NCBI GenBank assembly: GCA_963721805.1
Contig: CAVRJY010000001.1
Location: 1,056,001 to 1,120,000, forward strand
DNA from: Nitrospirota bacterium
GTDB taxonomy: Bacteria > Nitrospirota > Thermodesulfovibrionia > Thermodesulfovibrionales > JdFR-86
Reading direction: 5' to 3'
Length of the DNA stretch: 64,000 nt
Shown: positions 1 through 25,535 of the stretch, in pieces
How positions within the stretch are numbered: the first letter of the stretch is position 1
Layout: each line of letters begins with the position of its first letter
Notes under the pieces: generated by a model
What the model was told of the DNA's origin: nothing
The model's database searches: none
The model's input: only the letters and a program-made list of their open reading frames with translations
Position numbers and translations under genes: made by a program

Positions 1-238
1 CGGTGAACAGGCGGTTAGGCCGGATATTGCTTGACTGCTTCAATCCGCCCGTGGAGAAATCCTCATCACCAAGGCCGATGGAGTATGAGTCGTTAACTGT
101 TTTGCTTGTGATCTGGCAGAGTATAAGGTCATCTCCGCCCGGCGTTGCTATGACAAGGGCAGGGCGGCGTTTTGATTGCGTGAGGTCAGAAAATGGAAAT
201 GGCACGACTACGACATCGCCCTTTACAAACTTACCCAT
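1..238 (-). CDS. PemK/MazF-family toxin, 3'-truncated by the window edge (absent from the ORF track)
   Basis: Manual translation gives MGKFVKGDVVVVPFPFSDLTQSKRRPALVIA...LCQITS, with the typical GDVV..PFP..D..K.RPALV motif. It overlaps the end of the upstream antitoxin. Confidence 0.9.
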   Translation of the reverse strand, partial: MGKFVKGDVVVVPFPFSDLTQSKRRPALVIATPGGDDLILCQITSKTVNDSYSIGLGDEDFSTGGLKQSSNIRPNRLFT

Positions 239-420
239 GCCTCGTCCTCTTCGGGCCTAAGCCAATCCTTCTTAAGCGACGACTCGCTGGCCCCTGCGAT
301 AGCCACGCCTTCCCTGACGACCTTGGCTTTAATGAAATGTACGAAATCCAAGACCTCGTCAAGGTATGGTTCAGGAACCTGCTCGATCTCGTGCATAAGG
401 GCTTCTTTCTTTCCCATCAC
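223..420 (-). CDS. DUF2281-like antitoxin
   Basis: 65 aa with EVLDFVHFIK and a C-terminal SESSLKKDWLRPEEDEAW. GGAGG RBS, directly upstream of the PemK toxin. Confidence 0.8.
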   Translation of the reverse strand: MMGKKEALMHEIEQVPEPYLDEVLDFVHFIKAKVVREGVAIAGASESSLKKDWLRPEEDEAWVSL

Positions 421-465
421 CGCACCTCCTTTGTTCTAATATTATAGCTCATCCTTTCCCTTCCA

Positions 466-582
466 CTATGGCAATCCCGCGCAGACGAGGGAGCCTCCAT
501 ATTATATCCGAGCAATGGCGGTTTAGGATAATTATATCGTGCGAGCGGTCAACGGCATTGATTTGGAGCGCGCTTTCGGGGG
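466..582 (+). repeat. TA-spacer repeat copy 1; 479-549 is identical to 1867-1937 (71 bp)
   Basis: Direct sequence comparison. The 3' part GCGGTCAACGGCATTGATTTGGAGCGCGCTTTCGGGGG recurs near 1247 and 1300. Confidence 0.9.
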
Positions 583-629
583 TGCTATCCTCGACGGCTT
601 CTGTTATAATTTCGCATGAGGCTACGTAT

Positions 630-914
630 ATGACGTTAGTGGATACTATCAAGCGGGATGCTGAGGCACTCAAAGCCAGGTTTCACCTAAAGCGCATCGG
701 GATATTCGGCTCGTATGTGCGCGGAGAAGAAACGCCCGAAAGCGATCTCGACATCCTTGTTGAATTCGAGACTGATTATGAGACTTTCAATAATTATACT
801 GACCTGAAGTTTTACCTCGAAGACCGTTTTGGCAAGAATGTCGATGTCGTTACCGTTGATGCCCTTAAACCACAGCTGCGGGATATTATTTTAAACGAAG
901 TATCCTATGCCTAG
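630..914 (+). CDS. Minimal nucleotidyltransferase (MNT) antitoxin
   Basis: [24 protein letters not shown] motif. The ATG at 630 is preferred because the ORF-track extension from 468 runs through the repeat. Confidence 0.9.
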
Positions 915-1248
915 ACATTACAAGCTCTACCTTGAGGATATGCTTGTTTCGGCTGAGAGCATACTTGAGTATGTGAGCGGATTATCCAAGGACGCATTGC
1001 TTGCGGATAAAATGAGAGTCGATGCCGTAGTGAGGAACTATGAAATTATTGGCGAAGCAGCAGGCCGTATCCCTCAGGAGATTAGGGAGAAATACCCAAA
1101 GGTTGAGTGGAGGCGGATTACAGACCTTAGGAATATCCTGATACATGAATACTTCGGCATTAATCGCAATATCCTGTGGGATATCACTGCCAATCACCTG
1201 CCCCAGCTTGCAGCAGAGTTGAAGGCCATTGTTCCCAACGAGGGTTAG
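907..1248 (+). CDS. HEPN/DUF86 ribonuclease toxin (HepT-like)
   Basis: [13 protein letters not shown] and the RNILIHEY (Rx4H) HEPN motif; overlaps the MNT stop. Confidence 0.9.
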
Positions 1249-1366
1249 CGGTCAACGGCATTGATATGGTTCTCGCGCTTTAACGTGGCCTGTGCATAAT
1301 CGTGCGAGCGGTCAACGGCATTGATATGGAGCGCGCTTTCGGGGGGGACGCGGTCGTGCGCTGCCA
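1247..1366 (+). repeat. Two short tandem copies of the TA-spacer repeat core
   Basis: AGCGGTCAACGGCATTGATATGG..CGCGCTTT at about 1247-1280 and 1300-1348. Confidence 0.85.
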
Positions 1367-1384
1367 CCAATTAGGCCGTGGCTG

Positions 1385-1573
1385 TTATGCAATCCCCAAT
1401 TTCTTTTTCATGTCATCATTTGTCGTCCATTTTTTCGTCTTTGCCTTAACCTCGACAGCGGAGGCGTAATCCTTGTTGTCTTCCTCGGCCTCCTTGAGGC
1501 GCTTATACTCCTCGTAATCGAGGATAACCGCGATGGGCTTATTGTTTTCCTTGATGATCTGTGTCTTAATCAC
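1385..1573 (-). CDS. Phd/RelB-like antitoxin
   Basis: IIKENNKPIAVILDYEEYKRL. The GTG start with GGAGG RBS overlaps the RelE stop. Confidence 0.75.
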   Translation of the reverse strand: MIKTQIIKENNKPIAVILDYEEYKRLKEAEEDNKDYASAVEVKAKTKKWTTNDDMKKKLGIA

Positions 1574-1829
1574 GATACGCCTCCTGTCTGTGCTTGACCT
1601 CATAAACGCTCAATGTGTTCTCCTCGATTCCGAAGATCACCCGATAGTCACCGATACGGAGCCTGAGAAACCCTCCATGTTTGCCTCGAAGGGTTTTAAT
1701 GTCGAAGCCCCCCGAAGGGTTGTCCGCGAATGACTCGATGGTTTTCACGATCCTGGCCGCATCGCTTCGATTGCCCTTCGCCAAGCGTTGCAATTGCTTG
1801 TCCGCATGTTCGGAGTACCGTATTTCCAT
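1566..1829 (-). CDS. RelE/ParE-family toxin
   Basis: IRYSEHADKQL...IKTLRG...LRLRIGDYRVIF...VKHRQEAY. Confidence 0.9.
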   Translation of the reverse strand: MEIRYSEHADKQLQRLAKGNRSDAARIVKTIESFADNPSGGFDIKTLRGKHGGFLRLRIGDYRVIFGIEENTLSVYEVKHRQEAYRD

Positions 1830-1847
1830 TTTACCCTTTCTACCCCG

Positions 1848-1968
1848 CTATGGCAATCTCGCCTTTGCGCAGACGAGGGAGCCTCCATATTATATCCGAG
1901 CAATGGCGGTTTAGGATAATTATATCGTGCGAGCGGTAAAGGGTATTGACTGGAGTTCTCGCGCTTTC
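1848..1968 (+). repeat. TA-spacer repeat copy 4
   Basis: Contains the 71-bp block identical to 479-549. Confidence 0.9.
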
Positions 1969-2422
1969 GTTGGTGCCACTGGCATCCCAAAGGAAAAGGC
2001 TGCAATTTCGGTAATGCGTCAATTTAAAGTTTAAGGGTAATCGTACAAGTTTAATAAAGGATTAATAAGAAGAAGCCTACGAGAGAAGCTGACGTGAATA
2101 TGCTTGACGCTGCCATTGCAATGATGCATTGCACAATAACGGTTGATTATGTCCAAAACGTGGACGTTAATAGCAACACCATATTCAATGCAAATGTGAA
2201 ATAGCCCACAGCTATTTATTAATATAATCATATTTTAATAGCGGTAAGGATCGATTTGAGAACCTATCATCCGAGGAAGCAAAAGGTTTCTCATGCAAGT
2301 GCGACGATGTAAATTGGGGGAAATAGCCCTAACGACGCAAGTCTTGTTCAATCAATATAGCCTTGACATGCAAGCCTTCGAAATGTTAAATTTAGGAAGA
2401 AAAATTTTAGGGGGTAATTAGC

Positions 2423-2866
2423 ATGAGCGATAAGGCCGATAAGCTGCTTGACCTGATTAAGCATTACCAGGAAATAATCGACTTATACGAACCCTTGGTA
2501 CTTGAGGCACGCGAGAATTTGAGCACTATTCGTAAGGCTATTGATCTTGTGTTGAGGGATGCTCACCCGACAGACCAAGAGTCACTGTTTGATGATAACG
2601 CCCAAAGAAGTCCCGGTATTGGAAGATACGCCGATAAGACGCTCGCCGAAGCTATCAAAGACATTTTAACTAATAATCCGAGGCCGCTAACGGCCGCTGA
2701 AATTACGCGTCGTGCTATCGATGGAGGCTTTACGAGCAATTCAGCTGATAAACGCCGCGACGTTTCAGTATGTTTAAGTCGGCTTAAAAAACGCAGCGAG
2801 ATCGGATCAGATATGACTGATGAGGGTATGGTTTATAGATTGGCGAAGGGAGGTGAGCAAACTTGA
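2423..2866 (+). CDS. Hypothetical protein with an N-terminal coiled coil and C-terminal winged HTH
   Basis: TLAEAIKDILTNNPRPLTAAEITRRAIDGG...VSVCLSRL resembles a wHTH. It sits in an AT-rich patch. Confidence 0.6.
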   Translation: MSDKADKLLDLIKHYQEIIDLYEPLVLEARENLSTIRKAIDLVLRDAHPTDQESLFDDNAQRSPGIGRYADKTLAEAIKDILTNNPRPLTAAEITRRAIDGGFTSNSADKRRDVSVCLSRLKKRSEIGSDMTDEGMVYRLAKGGEQT

Positions 2867-3375
2867 GAAGAATTGAAGGGCTGCTAATCGATGGATCGCC
2901 GTTAGCAGTTCCGCTAAAAATGAAGACTCGCTATCTGGTGTAGTTGGCACTGGGCCGGATAGCGAGTCGTTAGGCGATCCCCGCCTTTGGCGGAGGGTAA
3001 AACATTTTCGTGAGGATTAACACTTAAAAGGCTTGATCTTACAAGCTAATTATAGTGCCTTCCTTTGCGCATTGTCAAGCCCAAACTTAAAAACAGGAAA
3101 GGTCCTCCATGACTAAGAAACCTGGCTATAAGCTTGTATTCACAGCCTATATCACCACGCGAAACGGTACGCGGATTTACGCGTATCAACGGGGCCTCAA
3201 GGCTTTCCCAATATGGGTTAAAGACAAGAAGTAAAGGGTGAGTTGATGGTGGGGGGAGAAACATATCCCTCACCATCAACCTCTTTCCACTAACTATAGT
3301 TAGTCGTAAGTTAATAGAAAACGCACGGTTTTGAATTTTTCCTATAACCTTCGGTTTATATATAAACCGTAGTAT

Positions 3376-3820
3376 ATCGCTTTTTTCATTTAGTTGTGAT
3401 TCAATACAGGATGACTATGATAGGCTCATTTTTGAGGGTGCTGAAAGCAGGGTCGGAGGCCGATGGACAGCGCGAAAAACGTATCCGAACATCCGAACAC
3501 GGGAGAGGTCAAATTATCGATGTTTTTCGTTACCTTGGACTGTTTTTTGTCTGTTCATTCGAACGCAATAAAAAACGCGCGCACGTGCGCGCGCGATATT
3601 CCTAACTATGCCTAAGCGCGAGCATCAGAACATGCTTTTTCCGATCAAGTCTTTGACCGTGAGGCGCGGAGGCAGCGGCTGGGCCGCGCACTTCGCAAAG
3701 CGCGATAAATCGCGTCAGACTAGGAACGGCGAGGAAAACGTCCGCAAGTGTACTGAGACGTACTCTGGAGGACGGATTTCCGAAGCCGTGACAACGTATC
3801 ACGCGACTTTAGCGCGCTTT
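3376..3820 (+). repeat. Dispersed ~440-bp structured non-coding element, copy A (hairpin 3697-3820)
   Basis: Colinear homology to the reverse complement of 24359-24787, with compensatory stem changes. Confidence 0.8.
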
Positions 3821-3855
3821 CACAGAAGCCCCCGTATGCCGTATAATGGTGCCCT

Positions 3856-4944
3856 ATGAAAATCGCGATAACTGGCCTAGCTAATTCAGGTAAGACTACT
3901 ATCTTTAACGCTTTGACGGGCCTCCGGGTCGAGACGACGATCTACCCGACGACCGGCGGCGAGCCGAACCTCGGCATCGTCAAGGTGCCGGACGAGCGCA
4001 TCGACAGGCTCTCGGCGATCTTCAAGCCCAAGAAGACCACGCACTCGACGGTGCAGTACGTGGACTATCTGGGGCTCACGAAGGGCGACATGAAGCAGAA
4101 CCGGAGCGTGTTTGAGTTCGTCAAGGACTCGGATGCGCTAGTGCACGTCGTGCGCGCCTTCGAGGACCCCTCTGTGATGCATCCGCTCGACAGCGTGGAC
4201 GCGGTCAGGGACGTGGCCACGGTCGAGACCGAGCTGCTATTTGGGGACATCGAGCTTATCGACCGCAGGCTTGAGGGCATGGAACTCGGGCTAAAGCGGG
4301 GCAAGAAGCCGAACGAGGACGAGAAGCGCGTGCTCCTGAAGTGCAAGGAGGCCCTCGATGCCGAGCGGCCGCTTCGGGACGTGGAGTTCACGGAGGACGA
4401 GGACAAGGCGGTCAGCCACCTGCAGTTCATGTCCATCCTGCCCGAGACCGTGGTGCTGAACATCGGCGAGGCCGACCTGAACACCGAACGCGCCGCGAAG
4501 CTCCAGGCCGAGGTCGAGGCGTACTACGCCGGGAGGCGCGGGGTGACGGTCGTGACGCTATCGGGGAAGGTCGAGATGGACATCGCGGAGCTCGCGCCTG
4601 ATGAGGCCCGCGCGTTCCTGGACGACCTTGGGATCAAGGAGCCCGCTCTGCACCGGCTCATAAAGCTCTCATACGCCAACGTGGGGCTTATCTCGTTCAT
4701 CACCGCGGGCGAGGACGAGGTGCGCGCATGGGCCTTAAGGAAGGGCACCGACGCCCTGCACGCGGCCGGAAAAATACACTCAGACATACAGCGCGGGTTC
4801 ATACGCGCGGAGGTCGTCTCGTGCGAGGACTTCTTCAGGCTCGGCGGCTTCAGCGAGGCCCGCGACAAGGGGCTGCTCAGGCTTGAGGGCAAGACCTACG
4901 AGGTGAGGGACGGCGACATCATCAACTTCAGGTTCAACGTCTAG
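3856..4944 (+). CDS. ychF: Redox-regulated ribosome-binding ATPase YchF
   Basis: P-loop GLANSGKTT, IHSDIQRGFIRAEV, and C-terminal LRLEGKTYEVRDGDIINFRFNV. Confidence 0.95.
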   Translation: MKIAITGLANSGKTTIFNALTGLRVETTIYPTTGGEPNLGIVKVPDERIDRLSAIFKPKKTTHSTVQYVDYLGLTKGDMKQNRSVFEFVKDSDALVHVVRAFEDPSVMHPLDSVDAVRDVATVETELLFGDIELIDRRLEGMELGLKRGKKPNEDEKRVLLKCKEALDAERPLRDVEFTEDEDKAVSHLQFMSILPETVVLNIGEADLNTERAAKLQAEVEAYYAGRRGVTVVTLSGKVEMDIAELAPDEARAFLDDLGIKEPALHRLIKLSYANVGLISFITAGEDEVRAWALRKGTDALHAAGKIHSDIQRGFIRAEVVSCEDFFRLGGFSEARDKGLLRLEGKTYEVRDGDIINFRFNV

Positions 4945-22203: not shown

Positions 22204-22276
<73 letters not shown>

Positions 22277-22358: not shown

Positions 22359-22434
22359 TGGCGCGCCTGAGAGGGTTCGAACCTCCGACCCTTGGCTTCG
22401 GAGGCCAATGCTCTATCCACTGAGCTACAGGCGC
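22359..22434 (-). tRNA. tRNA-Arg(CCG)
   Basis: GCGCCTGTAGCTCAGTGGATAGAGC, TTGGCCT-CCG-AAGCCAA, GTTCGAACC, ends in CCA. Confidence 0.95.
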
Positions 22435-22487: not shown

Positions 22488-24296
22488 CTACGATTCCCGC
22501 ACCTTCGGGCGCTTGCCGGCCTCGAGGATTTTCTTCCTGAGCCGGATGGAATTCGGCGTGACCTCGACGAGTTCGTCTTCCTTTATGAACTCCATCGCGT
22601 TCTCCAGGCTCATGGCGCGCGGCGGCACGAGCTGCAGTGCCTCGTCGGTGCCGGAGGCGCGCATGTTGGTGAGCTTCTTTTCCTTCGTCACGTTGACGTC
22701 GAGGTCGTTCTCGCGCGAGTTCTCGCCTACGACCATGCCCTCGTAGACCGGGACGGTCTCGGCGACGAAGAGCGTGCCGCGCGGCTGCAGATGAAACAGC
22801 GCGTACATCGTGGTCTTGCCCGAGCGGTCGGATACGAGCGCGCCGTTTTTGCGCTTGCTCATCGCGCCGTGCCAGGGTTCGTAGCCGTCGAACATGTGGT
22901 TTAATAGTCCCGTCCCGCGCGTGTCGGTCAGGAACTGCGACCTGAATCCTATAAGCCCGCGCGAGGGGATGCGGAATTCGAGCCTCACCCTGCCGTGGCC
23001 GTGGTTCATCATCTTCATCATCTTGCCCTTGCGCATACCGACCTGCTGAGTCACGACGCCCACGTAGTCCTCGGGCACGTCGATCACGAGCAGCTCCATC
23101 GGCTCGTTCACCACTCCGTTTATCGTCTTGGTGATCGTCTCGGGCATGGCTATGGACATCTCATAGCCCTCGCGCCTCATCATGTCGATCAGGATCGCAA
23201 GCTGTAGCTCGCCGCGCCCCATGACCTTAAACGAGTCCATGCTCTCGAAGTCCACTCGGATCGAGACGTTATAGAGCAGCTCCTTCTCGAGCCTGTCGCG
23301 CAAATTGCGTGAGGTCACGAACTTTCCGTCGCGGCCTGAAAAAGGCGAGGAGTTCACGGAAAACACTATCGAGATCGTGGGCTCGTCCACCGTGATGCGC
23401 GGCAGCGGCTTCGGGGTCTCGGCGCTCGTGATCGTATCGCCTATCGTGACGTCCTCCATCCCGGAGAGCGCGACAATCTCGCCCATCGAGGCCTCTTTGA
23501 CCGACTCGCGCTCGAGGCCCTTGAATATATAGAGCGACGAGATCTTGGTCTTTACGAGCTCGCCCTCGGCGTGTATGTACGCGGCCTGGTCCCCTACGCG
23601 CACCGTGCCCGAAAAAATGCGCCCGATCGCGAGGCGTCCTACGTATTCGCTGTAGTCGATGTTCGTCACCAATATCTGGAGCGTGTCGTCCGGGTCGCCC
23701 TCGGGCGGCGCGACCTTCGCGATGATCACGTCAAAAAGCGGGGTGAGATTAGTCATCGGCTCATCAGGCGTAAGCCCTGCGATGCCGGCCTTGGCGTTCG
23801 TGTATACGATCGGGAAATCGAGCTGCGACTCGTTCGCGTCGAGGTCGATGAACAGGTCATAGACCTCGTTTAAGACCTCCTGTATGCGCGCGTCCGGACG
23901 GTCGATCTTGTTGATGACGAGTATCGGCGGAAGCCCGAGCTCCAGCGCCTTTTTAAGCACGAAGCGGGTCTGGGGCAGGGGGCCCTCCGAGGCGTCCACC
24001 ATCAGGAGCACGCCGTCGACCATCTTGAGCGTGCGCTCGACCTCGCCACCGAAGTCGGCGTGGCCCGGCGTGTCGACGATGTTGATCTTGACGCCGCCGT
24101 ATACGACCGCGGCGTTCTTGGCCATGATCGTAATGCCGCGCTCGCGCTCGAGGTCGATGTTGTCCATTACGCGCTCTTGAACGCGCTCGTTGGCGCGGAA
24201 CGTGCCGGCCTGTCGCAAGAGCCCGTCTACGAGGGTTGTCTTGCCGTGGTCTACGTGGGCTATAATCGCTATGTTACGAATATCGGTTCTTTTCAC
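22488..24296 (-). CDS. typA: Translational GTPase TypA/BipA
   Basis: [44 protein letters not shown]. The GTG start at 24296 is inferred. Confidence 0.95.
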
Positions 24297-24358
24297 AACC
24301 GGTAGAATAACCTTTCCGGGGTATATATTACAAATGGCACGATTTCCATGCATATTTC

Positions 24359-24787
24359 AAAGCGCGCCAAATCGCTTGATACGTCGTTGGGCATCGAAGA
24401 CTCGCCCTCTATGTACGTCACAGTACACCATCGGGCGGTCTTCTTGCCCTGCCTTGTCTGAAGCCGATTTGGACGCGCTTTCGGGGGGCACGGACGACGG
24501 ACGCCCCCCGCGCCCCACAAGGTCAACGGCATGATTGGAGGGCCGGTCATAGGTATAGTTATGCATAACGCGCGCGTGTGCGCGCATTTTTTTAGAGCGT
24601 TCGAATGAACAGAGAAAAAACAGTTTAACCTCGCGGATTTCATCGTTTTTTAACGGCTTTCCGTGTTCGGGTGTTCGGATCTGCTATTCGTGCTCTCAAC
24701 TGGCCTCCAGCCTCGTTTCCGCGTCCTCAAATACGACCATATTGGCCTCATGCCGTATTGAAGCACAAATCAAATGAAAAATCGATA
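24359..24787 (-). repeat. Dispersed ~430-bp structured non-coding element, copy B (hairpin 24359-24481)
   Basis: Homologous to 3376-3820. Confidence 0.8.

Positions 24788-25048: not shown

Positions 25049-25535
<487 letters not shown>

Follow-up and report, generated by a model that had tools for sequence, protein, structure and literature searches.

The 64,000-nucleotide stretch of a Nitrospirota genome analysed here, referred to as the window, carries two copies of a non-coding element that ends in a hairpin of about 124 nucleotides (nt), one on the plus strand upstream of ychF (copy A) and the other on the minus strand upstream of typA (copy B). An earlier note, drawn from the letters of the window, had described the element as ~440 bp long and had linked it to these two genes for ribosome-associated NTPases. 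The overall explanation that we favour, and consider probable, is that each of the two stretches is a long arm belonging to a family of structured repeats that is spread over the whole genome and located at the borders of core genes. The copy number of this family, its modular build, its placement rule, its spread across phyla and the selection acting on its hairpin fold are established here.

Copy A begins with a long 5' module, termed module X (3291..3648, +), whose 5' boundary is common to 15 full-length copies. The module contains a terminal palindrome, CTAACTATAGTTAG (~3290-3303), an AT palindrome, CGGTTTATATATAAACCG (3352-3369), copies of the repeat ATCCGAACA (at 3483-3499 and elsewhere) and, at 3575-3595, a GC palindrome. 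It is followed at 3649..3696 (+) by the junction box GTCTTTGACC (family consensus GCCGTTGACC) and a small GC-rich hairpin, and at 3697..3820 (+) by hairpin A, in which an outer stem leads through a conserved internal loop (TCAGACTAGG / GACAACGTATCA) to a middle stem that varies and then to the apex, GTAC-N6-GTAC, and which scores 97.7 bits (E = 4.8e-25) against R1, the covariance model of the family described below. The tail of copy A runs into a promoter-like site, TTCACA-17-TATAAT (3819..3847, +; 11/12 consensus matches), the first hexamer of which overlaps the hairpin end, and the core gene at this tail, ychF, lies at 3856..4944 (+; Pfam YchF-GTPase_C, E = 7.4e-34). The existence of the element was well recognised in the earlier note, although its length was underestimated, since the sharp 5' end of the 15 full-length copies falls at ~3291. 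Copy B is organised in the same order on the minus strand, with a shorter version of the long module that lacks the AT palindrome end (24531..24787, as aligned), a GC palindrome within it (24569-24585) that is followed by a T-run on the plus strand, antisense to the element, the junction box GCCGTTGACC (24521-24530), a small GC hairpin (24482-24520) and hairpin B (24359..24481; R1 91.3 bits, E = 2.8e-23), a member of the commonest subfamily of the genome. The maximal open reading frame (ORF) of typA/bipA (22488..24353, -; Pfam GTP_EFTU and BipA_C) extends to 24353, and its probable start, read from the sequence, is the GTG at 24296. The distances given earlier from the hairpins to the genes were accurate: 35 nt from the end of hairpin A to the ATG of ychF (3856) and 63 nt from the end of hairpin B to the probable GTG of typA.

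The likeness that had been claimed between 3376-3820(+) and 24787-24359(-) is borne out by the alignment of 3300-3900(+) with 24870-24280(-), which comprises 623 columns with a mean column identity of 79% and in which all the shared blocks were recovered, namely TTTTCATTT, TTCAATAC, ATCCGAACAyCCGAACACGG, CTGTTCATTCGAACGC, the palindrome GCGCGCAC..GCGCGCG and TAACTAT. Folding confirmed that the distal 124 nt of the two copies (3697-3820, +; 24481-24359, -) form the same rod. The predicted energy is -55.5 kcal/mol for hairpin A (z = -4.3) and -64.7 kcal/mol for hairpin B (z = -7.3), and in neither case was any of 200 shuffles as stable. The compensatory changes between the stems of A and B are genuine and are seen throughout the hairpin family. 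A smaller hairpin, TCGG-agg-CCGA, had also been thought to covary; judged by eye, it is fully paired in ~3/7 of the long copies with that version of the module, and its pairing is thus not regularly maintained.

The host genome (2.78 Mb in 9 contigs, named C1, C2, C5 and so on; 94% complete) is rich in such hairpins. The 445 nt of the original element, used as a BLAST query, gave 50 matches, and iterated nhmmer searches with the hairpin gave 161, then 223, then 228 matches, which correspond to 227 non-overlapping loci on 6 contigs (125 on the minus strand and 102 on the plus strand). The strand of each locus is unambiguous, with a median score gap of 99 bits between strands. The hairpin is full length at 185 loci, with a modal length of 123 nt and a length of 120-125 nt in 157 of them, and 216/227 loci lie outside strong ORFs as defined by a crude ORF model made for this analysis. 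A near-identical twin of hairpin A (99.2% identity) is found at C2:66636-66759. At least 300 nt of the long form are covered at 30 loci, and the 15 that are full length share the sharp 5' end ...CAY followed by TAACNATAGTTA. Copy number rises in steps along copy A, from 22-43 in 3291-3648 to 44-55 where the junction box and the small hairpin lie and then to 121-133 in the hairpin itself; along copy B it is 10-48 in the long module, ~117 in the small hairpin and junction box and 154-184 in the hairpin. This stepwise profile, together with the coexistence of partial and full-length loci, shows that the element is modular. Its order from 5' to 3' is an AT-rich module of ~360 nt, the junction box, the small GC-rich hairpin, the 124-nt hairpin and an A-rich tail. 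The junction box, as GCCKTTGACC, occurs 169 times in the host genome, where it precedes most hairpins and is followed by one of several types of small hairpin, and the tail, SAAAAARG, stands 3' of the hairpin both at gene ends and at gene starts. Retroposition was considered and rejected, as the 5' extents of homology end at module boundaries and not randomly. Besides the standard forms, 27 long variants of 134-161 nt were observed (for example C1:17997-18146 and C1:1055444-1055589), in most of which the middle stem retains its 3' arm but has two small GC hairpins in place of the 5' arm, so that the rod is interrupted; their appearance is that of recombinants or mosaics. In three further hairpins (starting at C1:107492, C5:24315 and C2:487551) the last 11-16 nt are present twice, and at least two of these also repeat 5-9 nt of the flank; all three look like cases of short tandem duplication at the 3' end of the hairpin.

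Selection on the fold was assessed with a seed alignment of 18 diverse copies from the host genome and 42 from other genomes, from which the covariance model R1 was built with a hand-drawn rod structure. A total of 123 matches were realigned to R1, and covariation was counted on the 114 distinct rows. Standard pairs occupy 91.1% of cells as against 69.7% in column shuffles, a level that none of 500 shuffles reached, and double-sided changes amount to 785 cells as against 226; these figures come from an alignment fitted to R1, which favours pairing. At least one double change is seen in 28/35 pairs, and pairing drops to 28-43% when the 3' partner is slid by 1-3 columns. Covarying pairs of the same kind are already present in an alignment made from sequence only (for example AU 25, GC 16, CG 11). 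RNAalifold applied to that alignment recovered the apex only, hence the need for a model-guided one. The proposal that the structure is under selection is thus substantiated by the excess of pairing and of double-sided changes over shuffles and by the slid controls. The pairs had also been described as purely Watson-Crick, which holds only approximately, given that G-U accounts for 446/8056 pairs in single folds and 190/3858 cells in the model alignment. Two parts of the hairpin are invariant: the internal loop, in which TCAGAC.AGG faces GAC..AGTATCA, and the apex, GTAC-N6-GTAC, whose GTAC/GTAC stem is bordered on its outer side by a pair that is G-U in 65/113 sequences.

Paired positions hold 190 G-U cells and 81 A-C cells (125 and 81 if one conserved G-U pair is set aside), and the plus strand of the element, in the orientation read originally, is the more stable in 156/184 copies whose strands differ. 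Because G-U exceeds A-C and the plus strand folds better, we infer that the fold that matters is probably that of this one strand, whether as RNA or as single-stranded DNA, which argues against a double-stranded pair of transposase-binding ends. The conservation of two loop sequences across phyla would imply a conserved partner molecule. In the internal loop, AGUA stands opposite GA(C), which may be suggestive of the kink-turn and loop-E/sarcin-ricin motifs with which the loop was compared by eye. The hairpin is unrecognised by Rfam, as had been supposed: no family matches either copy, the search of the window at gathering scores returned two tRNAs only, and at E up to 10 the matches to the two copies were at chance level, the best being mir-327 (E = 0.94) and Leu_leader (E = 1.4). 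The likeness to 6S RNA that had been loosely suggested is without support, since there is no such match. A literature search found no description of the hairpin element. Read on the other strand, both the GC palindrome and the ATCCGAACA repeat of the long module run into a stretch of T and resemble terminators, and these T-run hairpins are antisense to the element in both copies.

The family is not confined to the host. The exact loop-and-apex pattern was found in at least 45 stretches of genome contigs, and among the stretches listed are representatives of Clostridia, Christensenellaceae, Desulfovibrionaceae, Anaeroplasmataceae, a metagenome-assembled genome (MAG) of Bacteroidaceae, Berkiella and a deltaproteobacterial MAG. 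In five such genomes R1 gave 21, 25, 73, 112 and 12 matches, with at most 150 candidates scored per genome. Within the host phylum, R1 matches occur in 32/151 sampled genomes (at most 22 candidates scored in each), and they are distributed by family, with 11/11, 5/6 and 3/3 genomes positive in some families versus 0/27 and 0/9 in others. Five genomes of the host's family or order gave weak R1 matches (E 1e-7 to 1e-5). BLAST in 40 relatives and the exact pattern in 200 other genomes of the host order returned nothing, and the pattern specific to the host genome was found in no stretch of the metagenome contigs. On the contig of the Berkiella MAG, at 4024-4273, the hairpins are not dispersed as in other places but follow one another head to tail, in tandem, every ~124 nt.

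The placement of the hairpin relative to genes follows a rule. On the tail side, 123 copies of the host genome have a convergent gene as their nearest strong neighbour, its stop codon lying at a median of 15 nt from the hairpin end, and 64 have a co-directional one, whose start is at a median of 71 nt; on the head side the next strong gene is ~500 nt distant. The same tendency is seen in other phyla, where 42 hairpins had enough flanking sequence: a convergent ORF of at least 70 codons has its stop within -8 to +30 of the hairpin end in 27/42, and in 23 of these 27 the stop overlaps the last 1-5 nt of the hairpin, while a stop lies at the hairpin head in 6/42. The neighbours of these foreign hairpins, named by eye from their translations, are housekeeping genes unrelated to one another and include upp-, guaA- and pyrB-like genes as well as hydrogenase and ABC-transporter genes. 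No clear bias of hairpin orientation with respect to replication was found in the host genome, where the skew is weak. Under the placement rule ychF and typA are two ordinary instances of a minority class, in which the tail points to a gene start. With more than 200 copies in the host genome and further copies in other phyla, the place of the repeat beside these genes is very probably incidental and bears no relation to their function. The link to ribosome-associated NTPases was to be abandoned if many copies stood next to random genes, and it is refuted by the 227 loci, which lie beside unrelated genes.

The idea that the 440-nt element could be a cis-regulatory leader or a small RNA gene specific to ychF and typA draws on the fact that both copies point to the gene of a ribosome-associated GTPase and end 35-63 nt before it, and on the conserved fold. 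We consider it hardly credible in view of the many copies at unrelated genes, the predominance of copies that face the 3' end of a gene (123 vs 64), the lack of any Rfam match and the state of other ychF loci, as the hairpin is present in 0/10 of the closest metagenomic ones (55-72% identity). An empty site at ychF was not found; in the best metagenomic locus ychF overlaps a 902-aa gene whose ortholog is 330 kb away in the host genome, and this different arrangement means that no empty site can be defined there. The promoter-like site at 3819-3847, which begins in the last bases of hairpin A and ends 9 nt before the ATG of ychF, also speaks against a leader, being 3' of the hairpin: if it is real, hairpin A lies upstream of the ychF transcript and forms no part of its leader. 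The site suggests that ychF may be expressed from an mRNA that is leaderless or has a very short leader, the -35 box being donated by the end of the repeat. A -35-like hexamer is present at the junction of hairpin and tail in 117/187 copies. An outward promoter was nevertheless rejected as a general role of the family, as a suitably spaced -10 was found in 5/40 copies facing a near gene start and in 2/109 facing a gene end. Hybrid sites like the one at copy A are rare, with 3 among the same 40 copies.

Neighbouring hairpins were also compared in orientation. Of the pairs up to 1.5 kb apart, 32 have a head-to-head arrangement, 1 a tail-to-tail and 17 a tandem one; up to 3 kb the numbers are 50, 5 and 22, and 59 head-to-head pairs lie within 6 kb, some of them dimers only 69-147 nt apart. 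Such pairs arise because every arm is tied to a core gene of its own. Between the heads the G+C content is 0.467 versus 0.618 outside, and it is lower in 47/51 cases. From the 59 distinct ORFs between heads, 28, mainly small ones, were submitted to Pfam, and 20 of the 28 proteins matched a family, nearly all of them toxin-antitoxin families: DUF4160/DUF2442, MazE/PemK, HicA/HicB, Gp49/HTH, MNT/HepT and Phd/ParE, together with one methylase-Mrr fusion. Copy A is the right arm of one such islet of 4.4 kb, whose inverted partner hairpin lies at C1:1055444-1055589(-), 412-556 nt ahead of the first position of the window. The intervening 4.1 kb contain PemK, MNT/HepT and Phd/ParE genes and have a G+C content of 0.375-0.53 as against 0.62-0.66 in core genes. 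The part of this islet within the window, on the head side of copy A (1..3290), comprises the 3' part of a PemK/MazF-type toxin gene (ORF 2-238, -), which runs off the window start and whose Pfam match refers to the whole gene (C1:1055906-1056238), a small ORF (223-420, -), MNT (468-914, +), HepT (907-1248, +), a Phd-like gene (1385-1603, -) and ParE (1566-1829, -), the last four identified by Pfam, and ORFs without family assignment at 2031-2231 (-), 2423-2866 (+) and 3046-3279 (-). Copy B is a lone arm with a DUF4160/DUF2442 gene pair on its head side (25049..25535, +; Pfam E = 6.3e-18 and 8.8e-16), a type of pair that is also found in other islets of the host genome. A composite transposon was examined as an explanation of the head-to-head pairs and rejected: around 55 of them there is no target duplication beyond controls (longest shared word 4-8 nt), so the pairs are not single transposons.

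A cargo of this kind calls to mind integrons. The attC sites of integrons, 60-140 nt in length, are hairpins that keep their structure but vary in sequence; they have an unpaired spacer at the centre, fold in a strand-specific manner and carry R''/R' boxes of the form RYYYAAC ... GTTRRRY. The hairpin described here shares their length range, a conserved fold with variable sequence, a conserved unpaired spacer, the preference for one strand, direct contact with a stop codon and the proximity of toxin-antitoxin genes. It could accordingly be imagined as a single-stranded DNA recombination site at which a site-specific recombinase would dock small accessory-gene cassettes, namely toxin-antitoxin pairs, at the ends of core genes, with the junction box at the head as the cassette boundary; the low-GC, toxin-antitoxin-rich segments between heads would be the cassettes, the closest head-to-head dimers look like unoccupied sites, and the recognition of the hairpin by an IS30-like transposase, an enzyme acting on DNA (see below), would be in keeping with it. 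We nevertheless judge it unlikely. The base of the hairpin, AAAGCGCG...CGCGCTTT in the host and AAACCGCG...CGCGGTTT in gut genomes, reads without R''/R' boxes. The copies are dispersed in mixed orientation, mostly inverted relative to their neighbours, and do not form one-way arrays; the stop codons touched at the tail belong to core genes and not to the cargo, which is found at the head; many copies have no cargo at all; and no recombinase turned up, tyrosine recombinases and integrases not having been searched for. A broader version, in which the hairpin would be the site of a cross-phylum, chromosome-wide, integron-like capture system that acts on one folded DNA strand and has no known integrase, appears improbable to us. 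Small cassettes, mainly toxin-antitoxin, would in that case be docked at core-gene ends, exchange would take place at the junction box, and the head-to-head dimers would represent docks that are empty.

The ends of the resident IS30-, IS481- and IS200-like insertion sequences (IS) were compared with the element, and none has matching terminal repeats, which speaks against a MITE (miniature inverted-repeat transposable element) derived from an IS. Two multi-copy transposases belong to independent elements, IS481-like with 10 copies and IS30-like with 6. The IS30-like element (1096 bp, with a 326-aa HTH_38 transposase; C1:387255-388350 and five other places) occupies an identical position in the middle stem of the hairpin in 5/6 copies, between ...CAGGGC and GAGAAGACC...; its occurrence at one fixed position means that a DNA enzyme recognises the hairpin, as a target, and the pattern indicates what is probably a target specificity for it. 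The IS481-like element (1200 bp, 344-aa rve transposase, TGTAAAGG...CTTTTACA ends and 6-8-bp duplications) is present at ten places, for example C2:405829-407028, and inserts into a second repeat family, arrays of the palindrome GGAACNNGTTCC adjoining ATCATCGCGCATGAT. The only Y1 transposase type in the host genome is encoded by six identical genes, each within a 602-bp IS200-like element that has its own unrelated hairpins, CCCCGTGG..CCACGGGG. As the Y1 gene comes with its own end hairpins and does not track the 124-nt hairpin, it was rejected as a specific partner. The IS200-like copies (C1:42256-42687 and five other places) carry identical CCCCGTGGCTTGCCACGGGG hairpins at both ends, and two of the six adjoin the AT-palindrome end of a long module.

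The hairpin might also be the scaffold or template RNA of a mobile-element enzyme, that is, a TnpB/IscB guide scaffold or the template of a reverse transcriptase (RT) as in retrons and UG27. UG27 units (bioRxiv 10.64898/2026.09.22.753630) are 135-167 nt long, form arrays beside the RT in prophages and contain the motifs AUCN7UANAG and UUYA. Superficially they resemble our ~125-nt unit, which is likewise diverse in sequence, has short conserved motifs in an asymmetric internal loop and counts gut Bacillota and Bacteroidota among its carriers; its 3' end also abuts a variable flank, as in guide-RNA scaffolds. Against this, the TnpB domains PF07282 and PF01385 have no match in the host genome, RVT_1 is absent from 4/5 carrier genomes, the host included (one match in the fifth), the UG27 motifs are not seen by eye in the loop, the copies are dispersed on the chromosome, and the exact loop-and-apex pattern has 1 match in 2.9 million viral contigs. 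Taken together, these points make a scaffold or template RNA highly improbable.

In size, fold and placement the element seems to work like the ERIC, Correia and REP/BIME repeats, and its best label would be that of an uncatalogued structured repeat similar to these; the likeness to ERIC and Correia is one of these three features. Correia elements, which have 26-bp terminal inverted repeats and a TA duplication, undergo RNase III processing. A role in transcripts is supposed for them and for the present family. Like the Correia/NEMIS elements of Neisseria, our hairpins are repeats of ~100-155 bp that lie at gene boundaries and are able to supply promoter parts, as illustrated by the -35-like box of copy A. 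Unlike them, they show no duplication around head-to-head pairs, and their stems vary freely while the loops are conserved. ERIC/IRU elements, the 127-bp imperfect palindromes of enterobacteria, are nearly equal in length to the hairpin, and both are long imperfect intergenic hairpins near genes with size variants, which in ERIC arise by internal insertions and here are represented by the 27 long variants (for ERIC, see PMC2759123). The hairpin family differs from ERIC in occurring in several phyla and not in one bacterial family, in its strict orientation to the neighbouring gene and in its fixed 5' junction box and small hairpin. REP-type palindromes are described as mosaic, as forming inverted doublets and as targets of insertion sequences (PMC3116915, PMC1525189, PMC2817692). 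The hairpin family resembles REP/BIME/REPIN in these respects, being high-copy, extragenic (216/227), mosaic and modular, arranged in inverted doublets (the 59 head-to-head pairs) and a target of an insertion sequence, here the IS30-like one. The unit is nevertheless 124 nt and not 20-40 nt, and there is no cognate Y1 gene flanked by hairpins as in the REPIN-RAYT systems.

We propose that the family spread as a non-autonomous element of the REP/ERIC/Correia type, moved by some enzyme, and we regard such transposition-like mobility as reasonably likely. The tail end of each arm sits at the boundary of a core gene, ychF and typA being the core genes beside the two arms of the window, and the head end faces an intergenic space where low-GC accessory genes, mostly toxin-antitoxin, and insertion sequences gather. 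A repeat that was once mobile, or still is, would be retained where core genes border on foreign islets. As to the role for which it is retained, we put forward, as a tentative suggestion that is less than an even bet, that the folded plus strand may act, as RNA, at the boundary between islet and core gene, where it would stop, process or stabilise the transcripts that come out of the islet. The alternative offered in the earlier note, a single-stranded DNA hairpin or a non-autonomous mobile element, fits the data. Neither an enzyme that would mobilise it nor a target duplication nor an empty site came to light.

A number of observations weigh against this proposal. As regards mobility, no transposase matching the element was found in the host genome (nor is one known for ERIC); the ends of the IS30-, IS481- and IS200-like elements, compared by reading, bear no likeness to the hairpin arms or the element ends; Y1 occurs in 105/151 of the genomes from the host phylum, among them families that lack the hairpin, is absent from one carrier and does not track the hairpin; the head-to-head pairs lack a target duplication; and no empty sites were found among the available relatives, which are too distant. 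The family-wise distribution in the host phylum fits long vertical retention as well as transfer. As regards a role in RNA, the 124-nt hairpin was not called by a terminator scan and is followed only by TTT and the A-rich tail, short of the run of at least 5 T that marks an intrinsic terminator, the excess of G-U is modest once the conserved pair is left out (125 vs 81) and was counted on the model-fitted alignment, and the full rod is not always kept, the pairing of the middle stem being gone in the 27 long variants.

The removal of the proposed ychF/typA riboregulator disposes of a false lead, and the interest of the element lies in the conservation of its loops across phyla and in its strict gene-end rule and not in translation factors. 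What remains is a structured element of ~125 nt outside Rfam that recurs in Nitrospirota-like bacteria, gut Clostridia, Desulfovibrionaceae and others with unchanged loops and stems that covary freely, and whose hairpins bracket the spots where foreign genes settle. The partner molecule, once found, would explain how bacterial gene ends are marked and insulated, or how such repeats move. A covariance model of the family would annotate ~1% of the host genome (227 copies of ~124 nt). Elsewhere in the window, two tRNA genes are located directly 3' of typA, at 22204-22276 and 22362-22434 (-), with Rfam tRNA scores of 73.5 and 71 bits.

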